In this document: piece by piece, positions 4,676 through 42,086 of the stretch | Layout of the letters: the number at the start of each line of letters is the position of its first letter | Numbering within the stretch: position 1 is the first letter of the stretch | Source of the DNA: an uncultured Subdoligranulum sp. | Lineage (GTDB): Bacteria > Bacillota > Clostridia > Christensenellales > CAG-314 | Direction of reading: 5' to 3' | Length of the DNA stretch: 64,000 nt | Assembly (NCBI GenBank): GCA_964612455.1 | Contig: CAZTCB010000004.1 | Span: forward strand, 3,350-67,349 | The notes under the pieces: model-generated | What the model was told of the DNA's origin: nothing | What the model saw: only the letters and a program-made list of their open reading frames with translations | The model's database searches: none | Translations under genes and position numbers: made by a program

Positions 4676-6613
4676 CTAAGCGGGGATTTTATCGAGTATC
4701 GCGTCGATAAACTCTTCAAACGTCATATTTTTCCACGCGTCGCCAAACAAGGTGTTTAATTTCGTTTTGTTTGCCTCGTCAAGATTAAGCAATCCCGCGT
4801 TCATCAACTGCGAAAGGGTTGCCGTGTTTACTGCGGTGCTCAGCGCATCGGGGAGGTCGACTATCTTTGTGTCGGCGTCGATAAGGGAGAGTGCGCCCGT
4901 AGTCGTGTCCGCGTCGATGACTTCCGTATATGCAAGTTGTTTGATGTTGCTTACTATTTCGTCAATATCTATGTTGCCGAGAGTCGTGTTGCAGATTACG
5001 TCGTTGACGCCGGTCACCGTGGTGGTGTAAGTATCGTCGGTATACCATACCACTTCGTAGCAATCAGCCGTGTGCGTTGCGAGGGTGTGGGAGTGATCGG
5101 TGCAGTCGGCTTGCGCAACGTACCACTTGCCGTTGACTTTTTTCAATACGGTGCTGCCGCTGATTACGACTTGGTCGGCAACTATCGTGTCGTAAGTGTT
5201 CCCCAGCGTCGATTCGTGACGAGTATAGCCTTGCAGCTCACCGATATAAACGTAGTTCAATTCGTCGCCGAGAGTCAGGACGTATTTATCCGCGATAACT
5301 TTCATTATTTCGGGGTCAGAATCTTTTATCGTAATGATTTCTTTGATTTTTACGCCGTTAAGGATTTCGTCAATGCTCAAACCGTTGCGCATTTCACTCA
5401 TCTTTTTGTTGTAAATGTTATTAAATACGACGTTTTCGATGTTTTTACCGCTACCGTCAATCCAGACGCCGTTGTTTTCGTCAAGAGTGTAGTTCAGCAA
5501 ATCGCCTACGTACAGAGCGTCGATTTTATCGTTGACGTTGAGCGTTCCGCTCGTCAGCTCCGAAATACGCATATCCGCAAAAACCGACGTCAGTTTAGAT
5601 ACTTCGTTGCCGAAAGAGTCTCTCCATATTCCGTCTGTACCTTTGGAGTATTTCATTATTTCGCCCACGGTGAGGTCGGACAACTCGTCTTCGACGTTAA
5701 AGTTGCCGCCGAGCAGCTTTGAAACGTCGACGTCGGCTATCGTTTTGCTTATCGCGTCAATCAATTCCGTGCCGTTTTTGTCCTGCCATACGTTGCCGTT
5801 TTTGGTATAACCAATCAACTCGCCTACTTTAAGGTCGCCGATGGCATCCTCTATTTTAAAGTTGCCGCCGAGTAAATCGGTGATTTTCGTTTTTGCCACT
5901 GCGGCGGTAGTTGCGTCGAGAGCCGCGCCGTCTGCGGACAGCCAGTTGCCGTCGACGTCTTGTTGGTATCCCATGAGCTCGCCGAGAGAGTTGTCGGTAA
6001 ATAAAACGTTTGCGACGTTGCCGTCGGCTTTTTTCAGTTCGGCGTACAACAACCCGAGATCCCTGTCTGCAATAATCTTTTCGATACTGCCGGAGTTTTC
6101 GGAGATATCCGTCAACTTGCGCAGAGTAACGCCGTTGAGCAATACCTGAACGTTTCCGTCTATGAGGTCGCCTACCGAAACGCGGTTTGTTCTCCAGACG
6201 TCAATCACCGCCTGAGGAATTTTTACGCTTTCGCCGAGCGAACCGCTCAACAAATCGGCGAGTGCGACGTCGCTCAATGCTTCGCTCGGATTTGAGAATA
6301 TACTTTCGATATCGGTATTTCTCAGAGACTCGTACTCGTCACCGCTCAAACCTATCTGTCCCAAAACGTCTATGCCGTACGTACTTTGTATTTGGGCAAA
6401 GGTCAGATTGTCCGAAGAGGTCAGTTTGATTCCTTCGGTGATGATGTCGCCGAAAGACATTTTGTCAAAACGTTTGCCGTCGTCGTTTACCCATTGGTCG
6501 TTTTCAATGCCTACGGTGGAGGGCGTTACGATAAATACTGCCGCCACTATGCCTCCTATGAGTATAACCCACCCCACGATGATGCCAAGCAAAAATGCTA
6601 AAAAACGTTTCAT
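4676..6613 (-). CDS. membrane-anchored repeat protein, unknown function
   Basis: Probable start is ATG 6613 (MKRFLAFLLG..., AAGGAG 6 nt upstream). The ORF-track start at 6703 lies inside the predicted promoter. One N-terminal TM, then a roughly 590-aa hydrophilic region with 53-aa tandem repeats and a CTDHSHTLATHTADC cluster. No family recognised. Confidence 0.7.
   Translation of the reverse strand: MKRFLAFLLGIIVGWVILIGGIVAAVFIVTPSTVGIENDQWVNDDGKRFDKMSFGDIITEGIKLTSSDNLTFAQIQSTYGIDVLGQIGLSGDEYESLRNTDIESIFSNPSEALSDVALADLLSGSLGESVKIPQAVIDVWRTNRVSVGDLIDGNVQVLLNGVTLRKLTDISENSGSIEKIIADRDLGLLYAELKKADGNVANVLFTDNSLGELMGYQQDVDGNWLSADGAALDATTAAVAKTKITDLLGGNFKIEDAIGDLKVGELIGYTKNGNVWQDKNGTELIDAISKTIADVDVSKLLGGNFNVEDELSDLTVGEIMKYSKGTDGIWRDSFGNEVSKLTSVFADMRISELTSGTLNVNDKIDALYVGDLLNYTLDENNGVWIDGSGKNIENVVFNNIYNKKMSEMRNGLSIDEILNGVKIKEIITIKDSDPEIMKVIADKYVLTLGDELNYVYIGELQGYTRHESTLGNTYDTIVADQVVISGSTVLKKVNGKWYVAQADCTDHSHTLATHTADCYEVVWYTDDTYTTTVTGVNDVICNTTLGNIDIDEIVSNIKQLAYTEVIDADTTTGALSLIDADTKIVDLPDALSTAVNTATLSQLMNAGLLNLDEANKTKLNTLFGDAWKNMTFEEFIDAILDKIPA
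5414..5890 (-). repeat. three tandem 53-residue protein repeats (diverged at DNA level)
   Basis: LLGGNFKIEDAIGDLKVGELIGYTKNGNVWQDKNG / LLGGNFNVEDELSDLTVGEIMKYSKGTDGIWRDSFG / LTSGTLNVNDKIDALYVGDLLNYTLDENNGVWIDGSG. VGE/VGD anchors at residues 293, 346 and 399 (numbered from 6703). Degenerate copies flank them. Confidence 0.6.
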
Positions 6614-6691
6614 TTGCTGCTCCTTTGCGGTAATGTCCGCGAAATCGCCGAGTCGGACAGTGCCGTCGGCTTTATTTGGTAGTTTCTTTTT

Positions 6692-6720
6692 ATTATAATA
6701 CATGTAAACCCAAAAATCAA
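6692..6720 (-). promoter_or_regulatory. sigma-70-type promoter of the repeat-protein operon
   Basis: Minus strand reads TTGATT-17 nt-TATAAT. The -10 hexamer overlaps the ORF-track ATG at 6703, which argues for the downstream start at 6613. Confidence 0.55.
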
Positions 6721-29900: not shown

Positions 29901-30746
29901 TCAATAAGTAAGCCTTAAACGGTCGAGTATGGTTCGATGTTCCTTGCCTGTCGATATGAGATATATTCTCGTTGTGTCGATATTTGAGTGACCGAGCACG
30001 TCGGACAATCTTATCAAATCGTGACATTGTTCGTAAAACGTTTTTGCAAACAGATGTCTGAGGTTGTGGGGATAGACTTTTGTTTCTTCTATCCCGGCAA
30101 ATTTGCTTGCTTTTTTCAACTCCCGCCACACGTGTCGGCGGTCCATAGGATTTTGTTCCCGAGTAATGAAAATATAGCCGTGCGTTATTTTGTTATCTTT
30201 GGCATATTCGAGCAATTGTTTGGACAGCGCGATAGGAAACAGGACGGTTCTGATTTTTCCTTTAAGGGTAATATCGGCTTTGCCTCTCAGTATGTTTTCT
30301 ATCGTGATAAACCTGAGTTCGGAGACGCGTATTCCCGTAGAACAAATGGTTTCTATAAGCAGTAGCAGTTTTTTGGTTTTCGGATTGCCTTTTAGCGCGT
30401 TTATTATTTTAGCGTATTCTCTTCGTGTCAAATCTTTGTTTTCATCGCGAAACAGCTGTCTTTAGACGACGAGATATTTTACTTTCCAAGCAAATCGGTT
30501 TTTATAAATAAAAAACTTGTTGATTGCGGCGAGATAACCGTTGATTGTACTCGGCGCAAATCGTTTTTTTATAAGGTATTTTTTCCATTCTATGGCTGTA
30601 TCCTTATCTGCCGCCCGTCCGTTTAAAAACTCAGAAAAAGCAGAAATATTGTTAACGTATTTTTCTACGGTCTTTATTCCGCGTTCTTCCGCTTTTAGTT
30701 TTTTTTCAAAACTCGTTAGTTCTTTTTGTGTCAAAAAAATTGCCAT
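29901..30746 (-). pseudogene. tyrosine recombinase/integrase interrupted by one in-frame TAA
   Basis: ORFs 30746-30462 (SAM-like N domain) and 30431-29901 (catalytic domain with GIRVSEL, HNLRH, GHSNIDTT, RIY) are in the same frame. They are separated only by TAA at 30462-30464. Read-through gives ...KYLVV*RQLFRDENKDLTRREY.... Strong RBS AAAGGAG. Confidence 0.8.
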
Positions 30747-30777
30747 TTGTTACTCCTTTGCATTTTTATTAATAAAA

Positions 30778-30800
30778 AAACTCCGCACAAAGCGGAGTTT
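30778..30800 (-). terminator. rho-independent terminator of ttcA
   Basis: AAACTCCGC / GCGGAGTTT stem. On the minus strand it is followed by T7. Confidence 0.75.
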
Positions 30801-30820
30801 CGTTATTTGTTAAAAAATAT

Positions 30821-31573
30821 TTATTCGTTTTGTTCCTTTTTGTATTTTTCTTCTATATCATTCCACAAATTGTATCTTTCGCTACTCATGATGGCAGCTC
30901 CGATGCGATCTTTTGCAAAAGGAACGTTGTTATTGATGCTTTTTATAAGGTCTTTCATCGACTGTCTCTGGGTATGTTTGTCTGCGGGACAGGGATTGAA
31001 CGCGACGGGGAGTTTTTGTTGAGTCGCATATGCCGCGATGTCTTTTTCTTCGATAAAAATCATCGGTCTTATCAAAGACACCTTGCTTCGGCTCATGTAG
31101 TTTTTAGGCGCGAAAGTATTGAGACGTCCTTCAAAAATCATACTTAAGAAAAACGTTTCTATGACGTCGTCTTTGTGATGTCCCAACGCGAGTTTGTTGC
31201 AGCCGTGTTTAATTAACGCCGTGTTGAGTGCGCCGCGGCGCATTTTGCTGCAAAGGCTGCAAGGATTGGTTTCTTTTCTTACGTCAAAGATTATTTCGGC
31301 GATATCGGTTTTTTCGATGACGTAGGGTATCGACAGTTGCTTGCACCACTCTGAGATACCGTCAAAACACATGTCTTTAAAACCCATGTCTACCGTTATT
31401 GCGAGAATATTAAATTTTTGCGGTGAAAATCTTTGATAAGCTTTCAGTAGCGCCAATAAAGTCAAGCTGTCTTTGCCGCCGCTCACGCCTACCGCGATAT
31501 CGTCGCCGTCTTGTATCATATCAAATTGTGTAATTGCCTTTCTGAACGGCGCCAATAGTTGTTGAGTTTTCAT
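30821..31573 (-). CDS. ttcA: tRNA 2-thiocytidine biosynthesis protein TtcA (PP-loop ATPase)
   Basis: PP-loop SGGKDS, CSLCSKMRRG, LGHHKDD..ET, NPCP. Start at MKTQQ (31573) because the upstream in-frame ATG is part of the ATGGAGG RBS. Confidence 0.85.
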   Translation of the reverse strand: MKTQQLLAPFRKAITQFDMIQDGDDIAVGVSGGKDSLTLLALLKAYQRFSPQKFNILAITVDMGFKDMCFDGISEWCKQLSIPYVIEKTDIAEIIFDVRKETNPCSLCSKMRRGALNTALIKHGCNKLALGHHKDDVIETFFLSMIFEGRLNTFAPKNYMSRSKVSLIRPMIFIEEKDIAAYATQQKLPVAFNPCPADKHTQRQSMKDLIKSINNNVPFAKDRIGAAIMSSERYNLWNDIEEKYKKEQNE

Positions 31574-31591
31574 TATTACCTCCATTGTTTT

Positions 31592-31620
31592 ATTTTAACA
31601 GACAAAAGGTTTGTCGCCAA
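31592..31620 (-). promoter_or_regulatory. sigma-70-type promoter of ttcA
   Basis: Minus strand reads TTGGCG-17 nt-TAAAAT. The spacer contains the palindrome GACAAA-agg-TTTGTC. Confidence 0.5.
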
Positions 31621-31659
31621 CCGTTTTTACCTCTTTTTTCGGGATTTTTTACCTTATCG

Positions 31660-31688
31660 TTGCCAAAAAGCGCGTTTTGATATATAAT
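31660..31688 (+). promoter_or_regulatory. sigma-70-type promoter of the MBL-shikimate operon
   Basis: TTGCCA-17 nt-TATAAT, about 74 nt upstream of ATG 31762 (RBS GAAGGAGG). Confidence 0.6.
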
Positions 31689-31761
31689 AAATCCGACGAA
31701 ACAAAACGGTTTGGCATAACCGAAAACGAATTATTACGATTAAAAGAAGGAGGCTTAACAG

Positions 31762-33090
31762 ATGGCAAATAAAAAATCCGACACAACTAAAAAAACAAAA
31801 TCCAAGTCAACTCAACGCAAGGAAATCGGTGCGTTTGCGGCAGGAGCGGTTGCCGCGGGAGCAGTTGCCGCCAAGGCCGCAAAAAAAGGAAAAAATAAAA
31901 AACAAAAAAAGAGAATTAATACCGTTGCGTTTATACTCGTGCTCATAGTTATCGTGTGCGGCGCCATGTACTACATGGATATTACGCCGTTTGATTTTGA
32001 AATAAGCGGAGATACCTTCAAGTTTTATACGTATACGCCTATTATTCCCGTCAGAGATATAGGAGATTTGCAACTGACGGATTTTCGTCTGCACGTCATC
32101 GACGTCAATCAGGGGGATTGTTTATTTCTTCAACTCCCCGACGGGAAAAACATGTTGATAGACGGTGCAAAAAAGAGCGATACGGTTGCCAACGGCATCA
32201 TAGAGTACCTTCTGTCCGATGTCAACGGCATTGCGGTCGACGGCAAAGTAGTCATAGATTACGTAGTGCTTTCACACACCGATGCTGACCATTGCGGCAG
32301 TCTTGACGACGTGATAAAGAGCGACAAAATCGACGTAAAAAGCGTCTATCGTCCGCTTGTTTTGTCGAGTTACTCGGGAGATCCGTTAAAGTCGTACATA
32401 TCGGCAAACAACCTCAGCTGTTCTACCATATCGACCACGGTGTACAAAGAGTTTGTTCAGGCGGTTGACGAAGAACAAGACTGTACTACGTATTACAACC
32501 TCGGCAGTCGTACGTTGCAGGGTGACGGGTATACCATGTATTTTTTCAACCCGACGATAGATATGTATCAGGATATCAAGTCCGCTCAGGATAAAAACAA
32601 CGTTTCGCCGATTATTATCCTCGACCTCGAGGTGGCAGGTAGAAAAATAGCACTGACGGGTGACGCCGATAAAGTGCAGGAAAATAATTTTATTGCGCAA
32701 CTTTCCGACAATGATTACGGCATAGATGCCGAGTTTTGCGACGTCGACGTGTTGAAAGTCGCCCATCACGGCGGAAAAGAGTCCACCAACAGCGAGTTTT
32801 TAAACGTGGTAAAACCCGAATACGCTCTGATAAGCGTCGGGGCAAAAAATACTTACGGTCATCCTACGCAGGAGACGTTGCAGCGCCTAGATAATATCGG
32901 TTGCAAGACGATATACCGCACCGACCAAAGCGGCAGCATCGTTCTTACCGTTACTTCGGACGGTAGTCTCGATTTCAGCGTGACCGGCGGCGTCGTGTCC
33001 GCGTCGGCGACCACTCGACTTTATCGTTACGACTTTTTTGCCGTGTATACAGGTCTCGTTAATTCGGCAAAACAATACATGGCTGCGTGA
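31762..33090 (+). CDS. membrane-anchored MBL-fold hydrolase, ComEC C-terminal-domain type
   Basis: 442 aa. Lys-rich N-terminus, one TM, then the metallo-beta-lactamase landmarks VIDVNQGDC, SHTDADHCG, GDAD, VAHHG, YGHP, as in the ComEC/Rec2 nuclease-like domain. No competence channel domain. Confidence 0.75.
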   Translation: MANKKSDTTKKTKSKSTQRKEIGAFAAGAVAAGAVAAKAAKKGKNKKQKKRINTVAFILVLIVIVCGAMYYMDITPFDFEISGDTFKFYTYTPIIPVRDIGDLQLTDFRLHVIDVNQGDCLFLQLPDGKNMLIDGAKKSDTVANGIIEYLLSDVNGIAVDGKVVIDYVVLSHTDADHCGSLDDVIKSDKIDVKSVYRPLVLSSYSGDPLKSYISANNLSCSTISTTVYKEFVQAVDEEQDCTTYYNLGSRTLQGDGYTMYFFNPTIDMYQDIKSAQDKNNVSPIIILDLEVAGRKIALTGDADKVQENNFIAQLSDNDYGIDAEFCDVDVLKVAHHGGKESTNSEFLNVVKPEYALISVGAKNTYGHPTQETLQRLDNIGCKTIYRTDQSGSIVLTVTSDGSLDFSVTGGVVSASATTRLYRYDFFAVYTGLVNSAKQYMAA

Positions 33091-33091
33091 T

Positions 33092-35059
33092 ATGCTCAAG
33101 TTTTTTGCAAAAGGTTTTTCGCACGGAAAGGGCTATTTGTGTACCGCCGTCGGTTTGCCGGACGGGTTTAAGATAGACGTCGCCGCCGTAGAACACCAGC
33201 TGTTTCGTCGTCGCGAAGGCGTGGGGCGCAGTCCGCGAATGAGTATTGAAAACGATAAAATCACCTTTTTGAGCGGACTTGACGGCGAAGGTCGTACTAA
33301 CGGCAGACCGTTAAAGTTTTTTATTGCCAACGCTGATGACGCCTTGGCTGAAAAACCACCCGTTACCGCATTGAGAAGCGGACATGCCGACCTCGTCGGT
33401 TGTGAAAAATACGGTCTTGACGACGCCCGATTGGTTTGCGAACTTTCGTCGGCGCGACGTACCGTTGCGTATACCGCATACGGAGCCATCTGCAGACAGA
33501 TGCTTGAAAAAGAGAATATATTTTTCGATTCGCGAGTTACGCAGATAGGCGGCGTAAAAACAGACGAATGCGACGATTTTGTTTCTCGTTGCGCAGCGGA
33601 AATACGTTCCGCCCGCGACGACGGTGACAGCCTCGGCGGTAAAGTAAAAGTGTTTTGTCGCGGGTTGAAAATCGGTCTCGGCAATATGATTGATTACGAA
33701 GGACGCTTTGACGGAATAATCGCGCATGCTTTGATGGGTATACCTTCCGTCAAAAGTGTGGAAATCGGACTCGGCTCGTCTTACGCGGATAAAAGAAACG
33801 GCGCTGTCGCCGACAAATTAATAGTAAACGACGGTAAAATAATATACGATACCAACAATTGCGGCGGTATAGTCGGCGGCTTGACGACAGGTAACGATAT
33901 AGAGGTTACGCTGACCGTCAAACCCGTTCCGACTACGAGGCAGGGAGTGGAGACGATAGACTCGATTACTAAAGAAAAAACGATTTCGCATTACGAGCGT
34001 AGCGACGTTTGCGTGGTGAACAACGTCGGCGTAATTGCCGAAAACGTGCTTGCCGCCACCGTTCTCGACGTTTTTCTTAAAAATAAAAATGCGTCTGTTC
34101 GTTACGAAAAGTTTGATAAAAATAATATAAAGGGCAACAAGGTTTTCGTAGTGGATGCGAGCGTTTTGCCGCTGATAGACGTTTCGGGCGAAAAGGTGTT
34201 TGCGATAAACGACGCGGAGAAAGAAAAAAACCTTTTTACCGTTGAAAAATTACTTAAGTTTTTTAACGACAACGGCTTAAATCGTACGGACAGTGTCGTT
34301 GCCGTAGGCGGCGGAGCATTGCTGGATACCGTCGGATTTGCAGCGGCGGTATTTAAGCGGGGGATAGGAGTTTGTTTTGTTCCGACTACTTTGCTGTCTA
34401 TGACGGACGCGGCGCATGGCGGAAAAAACGCGGTAAATTTCGACGGAATAAAAAACGTTGCGGGCACTTTTTATTTGCCAAAAACGGTAATTGTCGATTT
34501 CGATTTTTTAAACGGCGACTACGAGCGACTTAAACGAGAGGGTTTTGGCGAAATAGTCAAATGCGCCTTGCTCGACAACAAGGTGATGACCGAGATAAAA
34601 GCGTCCGCGGATTTAAAGAAACTCGTCAGACTTTGCGTCGAGTTTAAAAACGAAGTGGTCGAAAGAGATCCTACCGACTTGTTTTGGCGCAATCAACTCA
34701 ATCTCGGACATACTTTCGGTCACGCTTTTGAGCGAGTTTTCGGTTTGTCGCATGGCGAGGCGGTATTACAGGGATTGTATTACGAAACCATGCTTGCAAC
34801 CTTTATCGGCGAGACAGACGGTGATTTTTCAAAAAAAACACTTGATTTTTTGTCCGATTACGTAGTTCCGATACGAGTTACGCCTACCGACGTCGATAGA
34901 ATACTCGTGTTGTGCGCCGCCGACAAAAAAAACGAAAATCAGGAAATAACTTTTGTTTTTGCCGCACCGTATTTCGATTTTAATCCAAAAAGCGTTGATT
35001 TGTTTACGTTGAAGGAGTTTTTTTGCCAATGTCCGATACTTATGAGGAAAAAACTTTAA
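33092..35059 (+). CDS. aroC/aroB: fused chorismate synthase / 3-dehydroquinate synthase
   Basis: ATG 33092 is 1 nt after the MBL stop. First roughly 335 aa carry ELSSARRTVAYTAYGAI, GDSLGG, NNCGGIVGG, RSDVCVVNNVGVIAENVL (AroC). Last roughly 315 aa carry VAVGGGALLD, PTTLLSMTDAAHGGKNAVN, NLGHTFGHAFE, SHGEAV (AroB). No stop between the domains. Confidence 0.85.
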   Translation: MLKFFAKGFSHGKGYLCTAVGLPDGFKIDVAAVEHQLFRRREGVGRSPRMSIENDKITFLSGLDGEGRTNGRPLKFFIANADDALAEKPPVTALRSGHADLVGCEKYGLDDARLVCELSSARRTVAYTAYGAICRQMLEKENIFFDSRVTQIGGVKTDECDDFVSRCAAEIRSARDDGDSLGGKVKVFCRGLKIGLGNMIDYEGRFDGIIAHALMGIPSVKSVEIGLGSSYADKRNGAVADKLIVNDGKIIYDTNNCGGIVGGLTTGNDIEVTLTVKPVPTTRQGVETIDSITKEKTISHYERSDVCVVNNVGVIAENVLAATVLDVFLKNKNASVRYEKFDKNNIKGNKVFVVDASVLPLIDVSGEKVFAINDAEKEKNLFTVEKLLKFFNDNGLNRTDSVVAVGGGALLDTVGFAAAVFKRGIGVCFVPTTLLSMTDAAHGGKNAVNFDGIKNVAGTFYLPKTVIVDFDFLNGDYERLKREGFGEIVKCALLDNKVMTEIKASADLKKLVRLCVEFKNEVVERDPTDLFWRNQLNLGHTFGHAFERVFGLSHGEAVLQGLYYETMLATFIGETDGDFSKKTLDFLSDYVVPIRVTPTDVDRILVLCAADKKNENQEITFVFAAPYFDFNPKSVDLFTLKEFFCQCPILMRKKL

Positions 35060-37044
35060 AATATACCGATTTACCGTACGGCGACAAATCGATAACCCAC
35101 AGAGCGTTGATTTGCGCCGCATTGTCGGACGGAAAATGCACTCTGACCAATGCGGCATTCAACGCCGACACTTACGCTACGGTTGAGTGTCTTAACGCTT
35201 TAGGTGCGAAAATAACCTTGTGCGGCGGCGGAAAAATAGAAGTCCTTCCGATTAAAAAACCCAACGACGACGTGGTTTTAAACTGTTTAAACAGCGGTAC
35301 TACCGCGAGAATGCTTGCAGGCGTCGCGGTGGGGTTAAACGTACATGCCGTCTTTATCGGCGACGACAGTCTGACGTCTCGTCCTATGCAACGGATATTG
35401 ACGCCGCTTAACGCTATGGGCGGCAAAATAGAAAAAAAAGACGGCTGTTTATTTGAGGTTTTTAAACATGGCGATTTAAACGCGATAGATTTTGATATGC
35501 CTGTGCCTTCGGCGCAGGTAAAGAGCGCGATACTTTTTGCCGGGCTTTTTGCACGCGGAAAGACTACGGTGAGGGAAACGTTTCAAACCCGCAATCACAC
35601 CGAGATTATGCTCGGACGTTTTTCGGCGGATATAGTTTGCTCGGACGGAATGGTTTCGTTAAACGGCGGTTTGCCGCTCAAAGCGACGGACGTAGTTATT
35701 CCTGACGATTTTTCAACCGCTGCCGCTTTAATTGCCATGTATTCCGTTTCTCCGCGTGGTATTTCGATACGCGACGTAGGGCTTAATCCGACGCGTACGG
35801 CATTTTTGGACTGGCTGAGGGCAGGCGGTGCCGAGGTGCGTTTAACTAATATGCATGAAACCTGCGCAGGCGAGATATCGGGTGACGTATACGTCAACGC
35901 TTTTCGTTTAAAGGGCGCCGATTCGCCCTATGCGCTCAGCAACAAGATGATTGACGAAATCCCGTCGGCTTGTCTTTTGGCCGCCACGGCGCGCGGCAAC
36001 AGTCGATTTGAAGGTCTTTGCGAGCTTACCAAAAAAGAAAGCGATAGATTGACGGCAATCGAAAAACTGCTGAATTCTTACGGCGTAAAAACGAGCAGAA
36101 AAGGGGACGATTTGACCGTCTGCGGCGGAAGCCTGACGCCGTCGACGAATATGCCGTTTGATACCGACGATCATCGTATCGCTATGATGGATATCGCGGC
36201 AAGCAATATATGCGGCAAGGCTGTTGCGTCCGAAAATCGTCGTTGTATAGATGTGTCTTGTCCCAATTTTTTACAAATGTTAAATTTACCGTATCGCTGG
36301 GGATTGTTCGGCACGGACGTAAAAAACAGTCTGTCGCCGCTGCTTTACGAGTCCGTTTGTCGCGTTACGGGATTAAAAGCAGAGTACAATGTTTTCAACG
36401 TTTCGTCGGATGAGTTTTTAAAATGTTTTAAGAGCATCTTCAGTCGGTTAAACGGAGCAAATCTGACGATGCCGTTTAAAACCATGTTGACTGACGAGCA
36501 AACCCCGATCAATACCTTGTTAAATCTCAACGGAAATCCCGTTGCGTTCAATACCGACGGTTTCGGTTTGATTAACGCGCTGAAAGACGCCGAAATCGAC
36601 GTAAGAGGTAAAAAACTGCTCATACTCGGTTGCGGCGGCGCGGCAAAAGAAGCCGTCAGAGTGTTAAATGCCAACGGGGCGAAACTGACCGTTCGCAATC
36701 GGACAGAGAGTAAAATCGATGAAATGAAAAAACGATACGAGTTGCAACCCGACGACGGAAAGACGGCGTTTGACGGCATATTGTCTTTTTTGCCTTTTAC
36801 GAAAGGCTTGACGCTCGTGACGAAAGAAGAGTTAAACGCCTCCGAGTTTGCTTTTGACGCATGTTACGTAAAAAAAACACCGTTTTTTATCTATGCAAAA
36901 TCCGCTTGTCGTCGTGTCGTCGGCGGTGAAAGCATGCTGTTTTGGCAGGGGATAAAGAACTTTGAAATCTGGACCAACGAAACGCTCTCGCAGGAGCGGA
37001 TTTTGGCTGCTAAAGAAATATTTTTTAAGGAGATTTATAAATGA
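35029..37044 (+). CDS. aroA/aroE: fused EPSP synthase (class II type) / shikimate dehydrogenase
   Basis: First roughly 420 aa: GDKSITHRAL, LNSGTTARML, KESDRL, DDHRIAM (AroA). Last roughly 250 aa: SLSPLLYE, NLTMPFK, FNTDGFG, LGCGGAAKEA (AroE). The start overlaps the upstream gene by 31 nt. Confidence 0.85.
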   Translation: MSDTYEEKTLKYTDLPYGDKSITHRALICAALSDGKCTLTNAAFNADTYATVECLNALGAKITLCGGGKIEVLPIKKPNDDVVLNCLNSGTTARMLAGVAVGLNVHAVFIGDDSLTSRPMQRILTPLNAMGGKIEKKDGCLFEVFKHGDLNAIDFDMPVPSAQVKSAILFAGLFARGKTTVRETFQTRNHTEIMLGRFSADIVCSDGMVSLNGGLPLKATDVVIPDDFSTAAALIAMYSVSPRGISIRDVGLNPTRTAFLDWLRAGGAEVRLTNMHETCAGEISGDVYVNAFRLKGADSPYALSNKMIDEIPSACLLAATARGNSRFEGLCELTKKESDRLTAIEKLLNSYGVKTSRKGDDLTVCGGSLTPSTNMPFDTDDHRIAMMDIAASNICGKAVASENRRCIDVSCPNFLQMLNLPYRWGLFGTDVKNSLSPLLYESVCRVTGLKAEYNVFNVSSDEFLKCFKSIFSRLNGANLTMPFKTMLTDEQTPINTLLNLNGNPVAFNTDGFGLINALKDAEIDVRGKKLLILGCGGAAKEAVRVLNANGAKLTVRNRTESKIDEMKKRYELQPDDGKTAFDGILSFLPFTKGLTLVTKEELNASEFAFDACYVKKTPFFIYAKSACRRVVGGESMLFWQGIKNFEIWTNETLSQERILAAKEIFFKEIYK

Positions 37045-37978: not shown

Positions 37979-38020
37979 TCGCCCGATATAGATAAAATTT
38001 AATTTTGATTTTTAAAGTAA

Positions 38021-38050
38021 AAAAAACTCCGCTTTTTAGCGGAGTTTTTT
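38021..38050. terminator. bidirectional rho-independent terminator
   Basis: AAAAAACTCCGC, loop TTTTTA, GCGGAGTTTTTT. Between convergent aroK (+) and the 996-aa gene (-). Confidence 0.8.
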
Positions 38051-38064
38051 ACAGTTTAATTTAT

Positions 38065-41055
38065 TTAACCTTGATAGTTGTTGACAACTTCTTCGGTATT
38101 CTTTTTGTGGGTAGACGCAAATTTTCTGATGATTATTGCGACAATAGCACCCAACATTGCGATGGTCACGACGAGAGAGGAGATAATCAACCAGTCTACA
38201 GGCTCTGTTTCTTCTGTGGTTTCCGTATCGTCATCGTCGGTTTCGGGGGAAAGAATAGTGGCAAGGTGAGTATTGAGCGTCTGAATGTCGTCACCGTTGT
38301 TTTCCCAATCGATGTAATAAGAGCCGTTTGTAGCGTCGGGATAGTGCTTTGCGTTAAACGTTGCCACCATCGTCTTAAGTGTCGCCATTTGCGCGTCAAA
38401 GTCGTCGTCAACGTTCTTTTTGAGTTCCGCAGCTTTCTCTACGATTTTATTAAAGTCGTTTTCCGTAGAGATATCGTTATAACGATAGTCTCTTACCGCG
38501 AGGTTGCTGTTGTTTGAAACAATCAGTTGCTCTTCGGCGTAAACGTTGTCGAGCTCGATATCGCCCGCCGTTTCGACATTGCCGTTTTTAAAGAGGTCAA
38601 AGTACTCTTTGCTGATCGTGTCGTTTTCTTCCGTAAGGTCCTCGAGAAGGGTACATTCGGCTCTGTCAAACAATACCGTCCCTTGTTGGTAGTCGATAGT
38701 TGTTTTTGCGTCGCGCTTGCCGTTCCACAGCTCGAGATTGACGGATACTTCGTTGTCGCCGGTGGCGAAGTAAATATAATAACGAACCCAACCGTCGCGG
38801 AGATCTTCGTCTACGGTTAAGAAAGAATTACTTACGTACGAAGAAGAAGAGCCGACAGTGAGGCTTGCGTATACTTCGGTTTTGCCGTCGGTGAGGTAGA
38901 TATGAGGTACCGCGCCGTCTACGCCTTTGGCAAGTACGCTGATGCGATAGAAGGAGTTAGCTGCAAGCGATATGGCGTCGGAACGATATCCGTGAGCGGT
39001 CGCCACGTTGTTGTAAATCATCAACAAAGAGTGGGCTTCGTCGTCCTTGTAGCCGTTAAAGTCTTGCTCGGTAATCCCGTATTTAAAGAGGTCGGAGGCT
39101 TGCGAACGATAAACGATGCCGCCGATACTGCTGTAAACGTCGTCGGGGTTTTCGTCGTTTGTCATGTCGTAAAACAACGCGCTCTTGTTGGGAGCGACTT
39201 TCGCCGCGTCGTAGTCGGAGGTAATCGTATTGAGACCTGCATACAGGCTAATCCAGTTGCCCGGCTCGACGGGGTAGTTTGTCGTAGGCGCGCTCGTCTT
39301 TATATTGTTAAAGCTTCCGTCCAACAAAAGTTCCGAAGGATTGGTCACCGTTTTCAACGACGCCGTTACGACGGAGGAAGAAGAGCTGACCGTAGTAAAA
39401 TTGTATTGGTCCAATTCCTCGAGCGAAAGTTCCGTCATATAAACGTTGCCCGTTACGGCAAACGATTCTTCGTTGGCAAACGTTTTCGTGGTAAACGCCA
39501 CACCGGAAGAATAGGTGGTAACTACGGATTTTCTTACGCCGACAGTGACCTGAATCTGTAAGTAATAAGTCGTGGTTTCGCTCGGTTGAATATAAAACTG
39601 ATATTGCGTCCAACCGTTGTTGGTGTCGTTAAGGATATCGTGAGAAGTATTTACGGACGCAAAATAAGCGGATATATTTTTGCCGAGAGTTTCGTCCAGT
39701 ACGAGATCTCCGTCGTCGTTGAGGTAGTAAGCGTTGAGATAGATGTAAGCGCCGCTACGCGGGTCGATGTCTTCCGTCCTTACCCAAACGGACGCGCGAT
39801 AACAACTGTTGATAGAGGGGGGAGTTACTTTAAACATGCCGAAATAAGCCGATTTATAATCGTTTTTCGCGGCTCTGTTAAGTTTGAGTATGTTTTCCGC
39901 CTCATCGTCGGCAAAAGGCATTACCAATTGCATGTCTTCGTCCTTGGTGATGTTTACGCTTTGAGCAGCCATTTTCATGTATTCGTCATGGCTCAACGTC
40001 GTCAAATCGCTCAGGTTTGCGGTTTCGTGAGTTGCGTAATCCCAATCTACGAGTTTAGAATTGGTCTCGTCGGTGTCGTAGGAGTAACTGACGTAGTTTT
40101 TGCTCGAGTCGAGCGTTTTTTGCTCGTTACGAATAAACTCGCCGTGGCTTATTGATTCGGTCGAAATCCAACCGAACATAATAAAACCGTATGCGGAAGA
40201 AGAGGATCTGCCGAGTCCCATTTCAAGGTAAGCGGTAGAAGAAGACGTCTTGGAGCCTTCGATATAAAAGTCAAACCTCGTCCAACCGTTGCTCTTGGCG
40301 TCGGCAGGAGCGTTGTTGATTGCGTCGGAAGTCACGTTGTATGTCACGAGATAGCTCGCGTCCGAAGTGCCTGTCTGACTCTTTTTGATAGCAACGTACG
40401 CACCGTCCTCGCCGACGATGTTTTTGGTATAAACCCACACGGAAACTTTCATGTACTTTCCGCTCGATATGGAAAAACTACTCGACATCACGCGCGTCGC
40501 GTCGGACTCCGCCGCGAGAGTCTTTTTTATCAGATATGCTCTCGTATCGTCGTCGTCTCTGCCTTCAAACTCGGGATAACCGGGTTGAGCCAGCTCGGCT
40601 TGTCCTTCAAGCGTACTGCTGACCACGACGCCTTTGGCTGTCAGGTCTTTGACCACGTTGCTCCAATCGGCAAGGTCTACCACGCCCATGGTGACGTTGC
40701 TCGGAGAAGAAGTAGTGGAGTAGCGCCACCCCATGCTACTGTCGATGGAGCTGTCCACCACCAACGGATAACTCAAATTTTTGCCGTTGGCAAAGGTGTT
40801 TGAAAAGTCAACGTTGGTAATCGTGGTGTCCGACGACGGATAAGAATTGCTGTCGGACGAGATAGTCGAAGGGATGACCTCAGTGTACGTAGCAACGCAC
40901 AGAGACGCCACCACCGCAACGACGAGCACCAAGCAAAGGATTAACGAAGTCCAAAGCTTTTTACGGAAAACGACGTTTTTAGCGGCAGACGCTTCCGCTT
41001 TGCCGCCTGCTTTGTAAGCCGGAGTGTAAAGTTTTTCATTCTGTTGTTTCTTCAT
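38065..41055 (-). CDS. large doubly membrane-anchored surface protein with three CBM4/9-like modules, unknown function
   Basis: 996 aa. AGGTGA RBS. TM at about residues 35-56 and about 955-977. Three internally homologous modules (VSVWVYT..GWTRFDFYIEGS; ASVWVRT..GWTQYQFYIQPS; RISVLAKG..GWVRYYIYFATG). Acidic linker ETDDDDTETTEETE before the C-terminal TM. Confidence 0.75.
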   Translation of the reverse strand: MKKQQNEKLYTPAYKAGGKAEASAAKNVVFRKKLWTSLILCLVLVVAVVASLCVATYTEVIPSTISSDSNSYPSSDTTITNVDFSNTFANGKNLSYPLVVDSSIDSSMGWRYSTTSSPSNVTMGVVDLADWSNVVKDLTAKGVVVSSTLEGQAELAQPGYPEFEGRDDDDTRAYLIKKTLAAESDATRVMSSSFSISSGKYMKVSVWVYTKNIVGEDGAYVAIKKSQTGTSDASYLVTYNVTSDAINNAPADAKSNGWTRFDFYIEGSKTSSSTAYLEMGLGRSSSSAYGFIMFGWISTESISHGEFIRNEQKTLDSSKNYVSYSYDTDETNSKLVDWDYATHETANLSDLTTLSHDEYMKMAAQSVNITKDEDMQLVMPFADDEAENILKLNRAAKNDYKSAYFGMFKVTPPSINSCYRASVWVRTEDIDPRSGAYIYLNAYYLNDDGDLVLDETLGKNISAYFASVNTSHDILNDTNNGWTQYQFYIQPSETTTYYLQIQVTVGVRKSVVTTYSSGVAFTTKTFANEESFAVTGNVYMTELSLEELDQYNFTTVSSSSSVVTASLKTVTNPSELLLDGSFNNIKTSAPTTNYPVEPGNWISLYAGLNTITSDYDAAKVAPNKSALFYDMTNDENPDDVYSSIGGIVYRSQASDLFKYGITEQDFNGYKDDEAHSLLMIYNNVATAHGYRSDAISLAANSFYRISVLAKGVDGAVPHIYLTDGKTEVYASLTVGSSSSYVSNSFLTVDEDLRDGWVRYYIYFATGDNEVSVNLELWNGKRDAKTTIDYQQGTVLFDRAECTLLEDLTEENDTISKEYFDLFKNGNVETAGDIELDNVYAEEQLIVSNNSNLAVRDYRYNDISTENDFNKIVEKAAELKKNVDDDFDAQMATLKTMVATFNAKHYPDATNGSYYIDWENNGDDIQTLNTHLATILSPETDDDDTETTEETEPVDWLIISSLVVTIAMLGAIVAIIIRKFASTHKKNTEEVVNNYQG

Positions 41056-41127
41056 TTAACTCACCTATAGTTGAAAAAATTTGTTGTAGTTACGCATAGC
41101 GAGCACAACTTCTCATTATGCTAAGTT

Positions 41128-41156
41128 ATTTTAATACATAATCGAAAAAAAAGCAA
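41128..41156 (-). promoter_or_regulatory. sigma-70-type promoter of the 996-aa gene
   Basis: Minus strand reads TTGCTT-17 nt-TAAAAT, about 70 nt upstream of the ATG at 41055. Confidence 0.5.
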
Positions 41157-41235: not shown

Positions 41236-41604
41236 ATGTCGGAAAAAAATTGGGTTAAGAAAATACTTTTTGTTATCTTTGGCGTTATTATCGGTTTCGT
41301 TAACGGTTTTTTGGGTAGCGGAGGCGGTACTATAGCCGTTACGGCGTTGCTTACCGTCGGCGGACTAAACCAAAAAAACGCTCAGGCGACGGCGTTGTTG
41401 GTGATTTTGCCGGTAAGCGTAGTCAGTGCGGTCGTATACCTCGTCAACGGCGCGGTCGACATAGAAAAAACCGTCTTTTCCACCATAGGTATAGTGGTAG
41501 GCGGCGGACTCGGCGCGGTGTTGCTCAACAAACTGCAAAGCAACGCCGTCAAGTTGATTTTTGCTTTGATACTTTTAGCAGCGGGAGTGAAAATGTTTTT
41601 ATGA
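41236..41604 (+). CDS. half-size TSUP (TauE/SafE) family membrane protein, 4 TM
   Basis: 122 aa. GFLGSGGGTIAV motif near the N-terminus and a family-typical C-terminal LLAAGVKMF. Confidence 0.75.
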   Translation: MSEKNWVKKILFVIFGVIIGFVNGFLGSGGGTIAVTALLTVGGLNQKNAQATALLVILPVSVVSAVVYLVNGAVDIEKTVFSTIGIVVGGGLGAVLLNKLQSNAVKLIFALILLAAGVKMFL

Positions 41605-42086
41605 CGATTTTATTGATTATATTTGGCTTTTTGGGCGGCGTTTTGGGCGGAATGGGTATGGGCGGAGGCACTTTGCTTATACCGTTGCTCAGTTTTCTCG
41701 ATATTCCCCAGCGCACTATTCAGGCAATAAACCTGATAGGTTTTTTACCGATGTCGATTGTGGCGTTGTGCTTTCACTTTAAAAACGGACTCGTAGAGAC
41801 CAAGGATTTGCTATGGCTCGTATTGCCTGCCGTAGCGGCGTCCGTAGGGGGCGCGATATTGTCCGGGGTTTCGAGTGAAAAGGTATTGAGGTACTGTTTC
41901 GGCGGATTGCTGCTCGTTCTCGGCGTATGGCAGCTCGTCAAGTGTCTCTCCGCCGCCGTGAAGGAAGCGAAAGTAAAAAAAATAGTGGCGGAGCAAAGAA
42001 AAAGCATTAAAGCCGACGCAAATGTCGTATATAATTATATTGATAGAAAAAATACCGCAAATCGACAGGGAAAAGGGCAAAAGTAA
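41601..42086 (+). CDS. half-size TSUP (TauE/SafE) family membrane protein, 4 TM plus basic tail
   Basis: 161 aa. ATGA overlap with the preceding gene. GGMGMGGGTLLIPLL motif. About 45-aa K-rich cytoplasmic tail. Confidence 0.75.
   Translation: MTILLIIFGFLGGVLGGMGMGGGTLLIPLLSFLDIPQRTIQAINLIGFLPMSIVALCFHFKNGLVETKDLLWLVLPAVAASVGGAILSGVSSEKVLRYCFGGLLLVLGVWQLVKCLSAAVKEAKVKKIVAEQRKSIKADANVVYNYIDRKNTANRQGKGQK

Follow-up and report, generated by a model that had tools for sequence, protein, structure and literature searches.

The stretch of DNA analyzed here (hereafter, the window) comprises 64,000 nucleotides of contig CAZTCB010000004.1 (positions 3,350 to 67,349 of the forward strand) from an uncultured Subdoligranulum sp. 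(GenBank assembly GCA_964612455.1). On its minus strand it carries a coding sequence (38065–41055, in window coordinates, which are used throughout) that, according to the list of open reading frames (ORFs), starts with ATG and specifies a protein of 996 residues plus a stop codon. Within the window the gene is the only one of its neighbourhood on the minus strand, flanked on one side by convergent genes for enzymes of the shikimate pathway and on the other by a divergent pair of genes coding for the two halves of a TauE/TSUP permease (see below). A ribosome-binding site, AGGTGA, is seen by direct reading of the sequence 5 nucleotides before the start codon (41061–41066, minus strand), and the N-terminus of the protein, MKKQQ..YTP, is kept in its homologues. 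A preliminary description of the locus, made from the letters alone, pictured the product as a protein fixed in the membrane by transmembrane helices at both ends and carrying, between them, three modules resembling carbohydrate-binding modules (CBMs) of families 4 and 9, with no catalytic domain. The results presented here bear out this picture, place the protein in a large family and lead us to suggest, tentatively, a role in the cell's own envelope.

Only two hydrophobic segments, at residues ~34–56 and ~955–976, were found in the 996-residue protein (Kyte–Doolittle, 19-residue window). The first (residues 34–56; 40888–40956, minus strand, as for all parts of this protein) reaches a hydropathy peak of 3.03, overlaps a helix at residues 22–55 of the structural model described below, and is preceded by a Lys-rich, presumably cytoplasmic tail of 33 residues (40957–41055) with nine Lys or Arg and two Asp or Glu residues and a conserved YTP motif; the residues directly after this helix are acidic. 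The second segment (residues 955–976; 38128–38193), recognized by its hydropathy and by a motif common to the family, W-x4-[ST]-x3-[GAS], follows an acidic, Thr-rich linker (residues 936–954; 38194–38250) with 10 Asp or Glu residues and no Lys or Arg, predicted to be disordered, and is itself followed by a basic tail of 20 residues (977–996; 38068–38127) that starts with RKFASTHKK. The positive-inside rule is satisfied at both termini, and the charge pattern around both hydrophobic segments fits a topology in which the two ends are cytoplasmic and residues 57–954 lie outside, an assignment based on hydropathy, charge and conservation in the family. Since the hydrophobic stretch near the N-terminus is ~22 residues long and is preceded by a conserved 33-residue tail, a cleaved signal peptide can be argued against, and the N-terminal helix is probably an uncleaved signal anchor. 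An equally good description would be that of an ordinary protein that crosses the membrane twice and has a very large loop on the outside. Its composition is acidic (isoelectric point of 4.3), rich in Ser, Thr, Asn and Asp, and poor in Cys.

The region between the two helices is made up of three modules and a stalk. Modules 1 (residues 76–305; 40141–40830) and 3 (residues 572–806; 38638–39342) are predicted CBM4/9-like beta-sandwiches, the former with a conserved helical insert (GVVD..W..V..DL...NPGYP), the latter beginning with NGSF...W and ending with VLFD; module 2 (residues 345–552; 39400–40023) is a beta-sandwich of this type too, though diverged and with an N-terminal third that differs. 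That the three are related, as first noticed from shared landmarks, is borne out by pairwise BLAST (E values of 2e-12, 4e-4 and 1.6e-5) and by hhalign, which aligned module 1 with module 3 over their full length (99.3%, E value of 1.7e-20); of module 2, only the C-terminal two-thirds were aligned, at 98.0% with module 1 and at 97.3% with module 3. No tandem repeat was found within the gene at the DNA level and the duplication of the modules is therefore ancient. An AlphaFold (AF2) model built from 72 homologues, with a mean predicted local distance difference test (pLDDT) score of 80 and a predicted TM-score of 0.66, superseded an earlier one from six sequences that was too poor to be used (pLDDT of 51). 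Long helices are seen at both ends of this model and, between them, three modules rich in beta-strands, every one of which has a short helical insert; the strands run from residues 110 to 302 in module 1 (pLDDT mostly 85–96), 351 to 548 in module 2 and 562 to 803 in module 3. The ~130-residue stalk of the preliminary description (residues 807–935; 38251–38637) is modelled as short strands and helices (864–880, 886–904 and 924–935; pLDDT ~75–92), and its motifs DYRYND and FN.KHY are kept in close homologues; the acidic linker that follows has a pLDDT below 50 at residues 939–954.

Foldseek searches with the model returned, from the PDB, the CBM22-1/CBM22-2 tandem of entry 4xup (TM-score, normalized to the target, of up to 0.42), CBM-like domains of Cry protoxins, reelin repeats, accessory domains of GH101 enzymes and the surface glycan-binding protein (SGBP) SGBP-B; matches in BFVD were to CenC-like and ConA-like modules of phages and viruses. 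As far as the model goes, these matches support the view that each module folds into a beta-sandwich jelly roll of the CBM4/9/22, or galactose-binding-like, kind, as the landmarks had suggested. The link to Pfam CBM_4_9 (PF02018; gathering threshold of 25.9 bits) is, at the sequence level, transitive: two distant homologues pass the threshold, P0007 with 29.1 bits, over a stretch that aligns to residues 180–277 of the window protein, in module 1, and P0097 with 31.6 bits. Two of 12 module-3 orthologues match CBM_4_9 at an E value of 2.5e-4, none of 12 module-1 orthologues does so at E ≤ 1, and the family consensus has the opening ‘I.NG.F ... YP ... W’ and the closing ‘G.v.FD’ that are usual in the CBM_4_9 superfamily. 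The comparison with PF02018 that had been proposed earlier thus came out in favour of the family, by way of these distant members, and not of the window protein, for which strict membership fails; because this protein reaches no Pfam threshold, ‘-like’ is the correct label, and ‘CBM4/9-like’ is justified as a statement about fold. With the whole protein as query, nothing was found above threshold in Pfam, NCBIfam, PDB chains, PHROGs or PADLOC, which argues that it has no catalytic domain; over residues 685–785 of module 3, NCBIfam gave a weak match to GTA_spike_fiber (22 bits against a cut-off of 36).

A word-indexed search yielded five close and three distant relatives, and an exhaustive profile search identified 822 clusters (defined at 50% identity) at E ≤ 1e-3, of which 593 remain at a limit of 1e-10 and 125 at one of 1e-30; the proteins are 800–1700 residues long. 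A narrow-alignment scan of the genome collection gave four loci. Neither in the word-indexed search, which returned 13 proteins when a wide profile was used, nor in the cluster look-up, where the label was ‘hypothetical protein [Clostridia bacterium]’, did any homologue bear a name other than ‘hypothetical protein’, in agreement with the preliminary description, which had recognized no characterized family. The labelled genomes are a Clostridiales metagenome-assembled genome (MAG), two uncultured Clostridia MAGs, Subdoligranulum sp. CAG:314 and a ‘Clostridia bacterium’; as far as labelled records show, the family is confined to uncultured Clostridia. No further Pfam domains were found in its long members, and a search of the literature on membrane-anchored CBM4 proteins produced nothing relevant. 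We thus have a large unnamed family for which there is no Pfam or NCBIfam model.

What is constant in this family is the tether at both ends. One N-terminal and one C-terminal hydrophobic segment, with none in between, are present in 133 of 145 full-length members, as expected from the double anchoring first proposed for the window protein. In close relatives the N-terminal transmembrane helix follows a tail of 10–45 residues, and 76 members, mostly longer ones, have a lipobox at positions 15–31, which in distant relatives takes the place of the helix; attachment by either a helix or a lipid argues that the N-terminal tether is itself under selection. At the other end, an alignment of 149 members shows an acidic, Thr- and Pro-rich linker and then a helix with Trp (85%), Ser or Thr five positions on (92%) and Gly, Ala or Ser after three more residues (88%), followed by [RK][KR] (80–91% of the members) and further lysines. 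The window protein conforms to this pattern with W955, S960, T964 and R977–K978, the Thr at position 964 being found in 7% of the members. Among close homologues the C-terminal helix is the best conserved segment of the protein: it is 95%, 64–68% and 50% identical where the modules of the ectodomain are ~80%, 36–55% and 30–37% identical. As judged from the alignments, this conservation exceeds the needs of a passive anchor, and the small-xxx-small spacing suggests packing against another helix.

Expression of the gene seems to be driven from a vegetative promoter. A generic consensus scan of the minus strand upstream of the gene found no promoter, whereas a comparison of 14 loci (the window and 13 related ones) revealed, in all 14, a single TTGNNN-N17-TANNNT element 64–113 nucleotides upstream of the start codon, kept even where the homologues are only 21–35% identical. 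In the window this element (41128–41156, minus strand) consists of a −35 box, TTGCTT (41156–41151), a 17-nucleotide spacer and a −10 box, TAAAAT (41133–41128), and on sequence grounds it is of the σA type rather than of a sporulation type. The promoter of its own that the gene had been credited with was therefore located by comparison, and its own terminator was found after the stop codon as a strong intrinsic hairpin with a 13-bp stem flanked by an A-run and a T-run (38021–38050, minus strand); this terminator is probably bidirectional and common to the gene and to the convergent shikimate kinase gene. The leader of ~70 nucleotides (41056–41122, minus strand) starts with an inverted repeat, GCATA...TATGC, that is conserved in close relatives (loci L001 and L008); in the window, the predicted stability of this hairpin does not exceed that of shuffled sequence (z = 0.56) and its significance is doubtful. 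No Rfam families or tRNAs were found in the window.

The gene is native to its genome. Its codon usage shows a correlation of r = 0.84 with that of the remainder of the window, in the middle of the range of 0.75–0.94, its GC content agrees with that of the window, and its GC content at third codon positions (GC3), 0.592, is near the top of the window range of 0.476–0.604. Only six of its 997 codons are TTA, CTA or TCA, and three antisense shadow ORFs (38005–38517, 38902–39561 and 39586–40155), all with coordinates congruent to 1 modulo 3, lie in the codon-aligned antisense frame; such ORFs had earlier been taken as a sign of host-like codon usage. The surroundings are those of a core chromosome, with LepA, a UvrD/PcrA-like helicase, LigA, PriA, RsmB, Ppx/GppA, MreB, DnaG, RpoD and ValS in the window, and Rnf and shikimate genes near the gene itself. 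As codon usage, GC content and core-gene context agree, recent horizontal transfer was rejected, in keeping with the preliminary description.

The two TauE genes (41236–42086, plus strand) overlap and code for proteins of 122 and 161 residues: the first (41236–41604) matches positions 122–237 of the Pfam TauE profile, that is, its C-terminal half (E value of 1.5e-22), and the second (41601–42086) positions 1–113, its N-terminal half (E value of 1.5e-20). The order of the halves is thus swapped in this split permease, the gene for the C-terminal half coming first. Neighbourhoods were compared at 13 loci, the window and those of 12 homologues that were looked up. A divergent TauE pair lies immediately upstream of the large gene in 12 of these loci, which represent about 10 of 11 independent lineages with pairwise identities of 21–35% over partial lengths; one family member, in locus L012, is without it. 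Beyond the pair, the window has an Rnf operon, and Rnf is near the gene in 7 of the 13 loci; Ppx/GppA occurs together with MreB in several. A flippase of the MOP family is found within one or two genes in six loci, its best resemblance being to SpoVB/MurJ (187–229 bits, under the equivalog cut-off of 372), and MurG is directly downstream in two. No conserved glycoside hydrolase, sugar (ABC) transporter, sigma factor, sortase or regulator was found near the gene in the 13 loci, a single GH2 enzyme in L012 apart. A literature search on TSUP/TauE proteins brought up nothing relevant. Some further features of these neighbourhoods may be recorded. The convergent shikimate genes of the window include two fusions (33038–35059 and 35023–37044, plus strand), of chorismate synthase with dehydroquinate synthase and of EPSP synthase with shikimate dehydrogenase, with a type II dehydroquinase and shikimate kinase after them; related loci L001, L008 and L018 have these fusions as well. 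In two distant lineages a pair of DUF421 and DUF4363 genes comes after the SpoVB-like flippase gene that lies downstream of the large gene (L003, 14602–15671; L017, 7799–8904). In Bacillus, YetF-like proteins with DUF421 have been connected with the properties of spores.

The interpretation that we favour, although we hold it at a little under an even chance, is that the 996-residue protein is a constitutively expressed, non-catalytic, glycan-binding protein at the membrane surface that acts on the cell's own envelope. A two-pass protein would be made from a vegetative promoter with both its ends in the cytoplasm, exposing an acidic loop of ~900 residues in which three jelly rolls of the CBM4/9/22 type are followed by a helical stalk and a flexible acidic linker. 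Because both ends would be fixed in the membrane, the chain of modules should stay near the interface of membrane and wall, not beyond the wall, so that an array of lectin folds would lie beneath the wall or inside it, held to the surface of the membrane. There, the modules may bind a glycan of the cell's own envelope, either peptidoglycan strands or a wall or capsular polymer, and the protein could serve as a non-catalytic scaffold or as a retention or organization factor, while its C-terminal helix probably associates with another membrane protein. A role in the cell's own envelope appears likelier than one in nutrient capture because the gene is located in the core genome, because genes for polysaccharide utilization are absent and because genes for peptidoglycan precursors recur nearby. 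Several observations weigh against this interpretation. Cell-wall genes are neighbours in only 8 of the 13 loci, and not in the window, in which the gene has shikimate genes at its side; the Pfam scan of the protein gave no CBM_4_9 match even at E ≤ 10, and profiles of the modules matched no PDB sequence at E ≤ 1. Glycan binding is inferred, and domains with a CBM fold can also mediate contacts between proteins or be purely structural. Moreover, the large gene does not form one operon with the TauE pair but is transcribed away from it, and since much of the neighbourhood (e.g., Rnf) is kept by descent, the linkage to TauE could in part be a gene order that was inherited.

The same evidence has been set against other explanations. 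That the protein is an accessory subunit of the split permease, its terminal helices docking on a TauE heterodimer of four plus four helices and its CBM-like ectodomain capturing, concentrating or gating the substrate or tying the transporter to the wall, is the chief rival but seems to us unlikely, though it accounts well for a head-to-head adjacency that persists across very divergent lineages and is steadier than that of any other neighbour, for the short and shared intergenic region, and for a C-terminal helix that is both the best conserved part of the protein and provided with a spacing typical of helix packing. Against it stand the divergent orientation of the genes and the member that is without the pair; we know of no TSUP permease that is partnered by a lectin-like protein, and the known substrates of TSUP permeases (TCDB family 2.A.102) are small sulfur-containing anions, not glycans. 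Partnership with TauE and a role in the cell's own envelope are not mutually exclusive. They would meet if the protein, the split permease and, ancestrally, the SpoVB/MurJ-like flippase formed an unrecognized envelope module of Clostridia, in which an array of lectin folds, lying close to the membrane and docked through the C-terminal helix, handled, on the external side of the membrane, an exported glycopolymer of the wall or surface or the precursor of one; we regard this combination as a rather improbable one. We give about as little credence to a nutrient-glycan capture protein or adhesin, a Gram-positive analogue of the SGBPs of Bacteroides directed at dietary or host polysaccharide. Modules of the CBM4/9/22 type are classically found in polysaccharide utilization, the Foldseek matches include both SGBP-B and the CBM22 tandem of a xylanase, and a non-catalytic, multi-modular architecture would suit this purpose; but no glycoside hydrolase, sugar transporter or regulator adjoins the gene as a conserved neighbour, the gene keeps one position in a core housekeeping region, its promoter looks constitutive and not substrate-induced, and double anchoring would hold the modules under the wall, with poor reach to insoluble substrates.

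A further possibility, to which we attach little weight, is that the protein is an abundant structural component of the envelope, comparable to a surface layer (S-layer), in which the beta-sandwich modules would be building blocks and not binders of a ligand. The near-consensus, conserved promoter, the high GC3, the acidic, Cys-poor composition and the leader hairpin of close relatives would all agree with this, but high abundance is here read from sequence features, the hairpin is not more stable than shuffled sequence, Pfam shows no SLH, CWB2 or other known module for anchoring an S-layer, and the S-layer proteins of bacteria are not normally held by transmembrane helices at both ends. Least probable, and largely refuted by the motifs that are missing, are an extracellular sensor of the RsgI kind and a substrate of sortase, or of another sorting system, that loses its C-terminal helix. 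A CBM-type module displayed outside by a membrane protein does recall the clostridial RsgI proteins, yet the cytoplasmic tails have only 33 and 20 residues, both are without a domain match, and in no locus is there an adjacent sigma-factor gene; a sensor of this type was therefore rejected. Likewise, a C-terminal helix with a basic cluster resembles a tripartite sorting signal, but an LPXTG substrate was rejected because the sequence before the helix reads ...TEETEPVDW and because, in 149 members, this acidic and variable region has no conserved motif but the Trp; distant homologues carry tails of 100–260 residues after the helix, which is incompatible with a cleaved sorting signal, and there is no conserved sortase gene nearby.

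If the modules do bind the cell's own wall polymers, the protein would represent a new type of non-catalytic envelope organizer in Gram-positive anaerobes; if they act together with the permease, it would be a transporter accessory of a new kind. Should the combined envelope module exist, more than 800 clusters that have no Pfam model would acquire a function, and TSUP-type permeases a role other than with sulfonates. No established principle is challenged. In either case the family merits a curated definition. A tether at both ends that is reached by two N-terminal solutions, helix or lipid, is a very unusual constant, and the head-to-head gene partnership with a split TauE permease has persisted across deep divergence. 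The preliminary description had missed how large the family is, that it is linked to the TauE pair and that cell-wall genes lie close by; these points, the family's constancy, the promoter kept across loci and the conserved motif of the C-terminal helix are what the present analysis adds.

Two other features of the window are noted here for reference. A second orphan membrane-anchored protein of 675 residues is encoded at 4676–6703 (minus strand), with a Lys-rich N-tail, one transmembrane helix at residues ~31–58 and repeats of ~60 residues of the type ‘LLGGNF..ED...DL.VGE..gY....g.W.D..G’; it has no Pfam match at E ≤ 1e-8 and no PADLOC match, is unrelated to the 996-residue family, and its gene has the highest GC3 in the window (0.604). 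At 29901–30431 (minus strand), an apparently short ORF of the phage integrase family (176 residues) lies beside the block of lowest GC content in the window (0.396 at 30001–32000), and the homologous position in locus L001 has an integrase gene of 281 residues; the region at 30–32 kb may be the remnant of an integrated element.

Finally, the protein can be compared with known systems. In fold it behaves as an array of non-catalytic CBMs, to which CBM4/9/22 and the SGBPs come nearest, and in topology it is like envelope proteins that pass the membrane twice and have large loops; it is best classed as a membrane-tethered, non-catalytic CBM protein of an unnamed family. The best Foldseek match (E value of 2.5e-13) was to the C-terminal pro-domain of a Cry protoxin (PDB 4w8j), in which CBM-like beta-rolls alternate with helical bundles; with a TM-score of 0.10 and 8% identity, this is a generic resemblance between proteins with several jelly rolls only, and the context differs, as the window protein has no toxin core. 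A phage receptor-binding or tail-fibre protein was rejected, given the lack of a PHROG match, a GTA_spike_fiber score below its cut-off and the core chromosomal surroundings, and a defence protein was rejected for want of a PADLOC match. Wzz-type co-polymerases and phage receptors like YueB/EsaA also have transmembrane helices near both ends and a very large extracytoplasmic region, and in this comparison, too, a MOP-family flippase is often nearby; however, their loops are mainly alpha-helical, where that of the window protein is built of beta-sandwiches, YueB/EsaA have several C-terminal helices, and membership in the Wzz type was rejected, as there was no sequence or profile match. Clostridial RsgI anti-sigma factors are, similarly, membrane proteins of Clostridia that display modules of a carbohydrate-binding type outside, but they have an N-terminal cytoplasmic anti-sigma domain, a single transmembrane helix and an adjacent sigI-like gene, none of which applies to the window protein. 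SGBP-B of Bacteroides (PDB 7kwb) is both a structural match and, like the window protein, a non-catalytic, membrane-tethered chain of beta-sandwiches at the cell surface. The SGBPs are outer-membrane lipoproteins of Gram-negative bacteria, tethered at one end and encoded beside SusC/SusD in polysaccharide utilization loci, whereas the window protein has an anchor at both ends and a host among the Clostridia, and a place in such a locus was rejected in view of its neighbours, the TauE halves, Rnf, the shikimate genes, the SpoVB-like flippase and MurG. With the CBM_4_9, or CenC-like, modules (PF02018; CAZy CBM4, CBM9 and CBM22) the window protein shares the beta-sandwich jelly roll as well as, in modules 1 and 3, the ‘NGxF...W’ opening and the ‘...FD’ closing strands; its own modules, however, are not appended to any enzyme and extend over ~210–235 residues, compared with ~135–150 in the known ones, with helical inserts that are conserved in the family to which it belongs.

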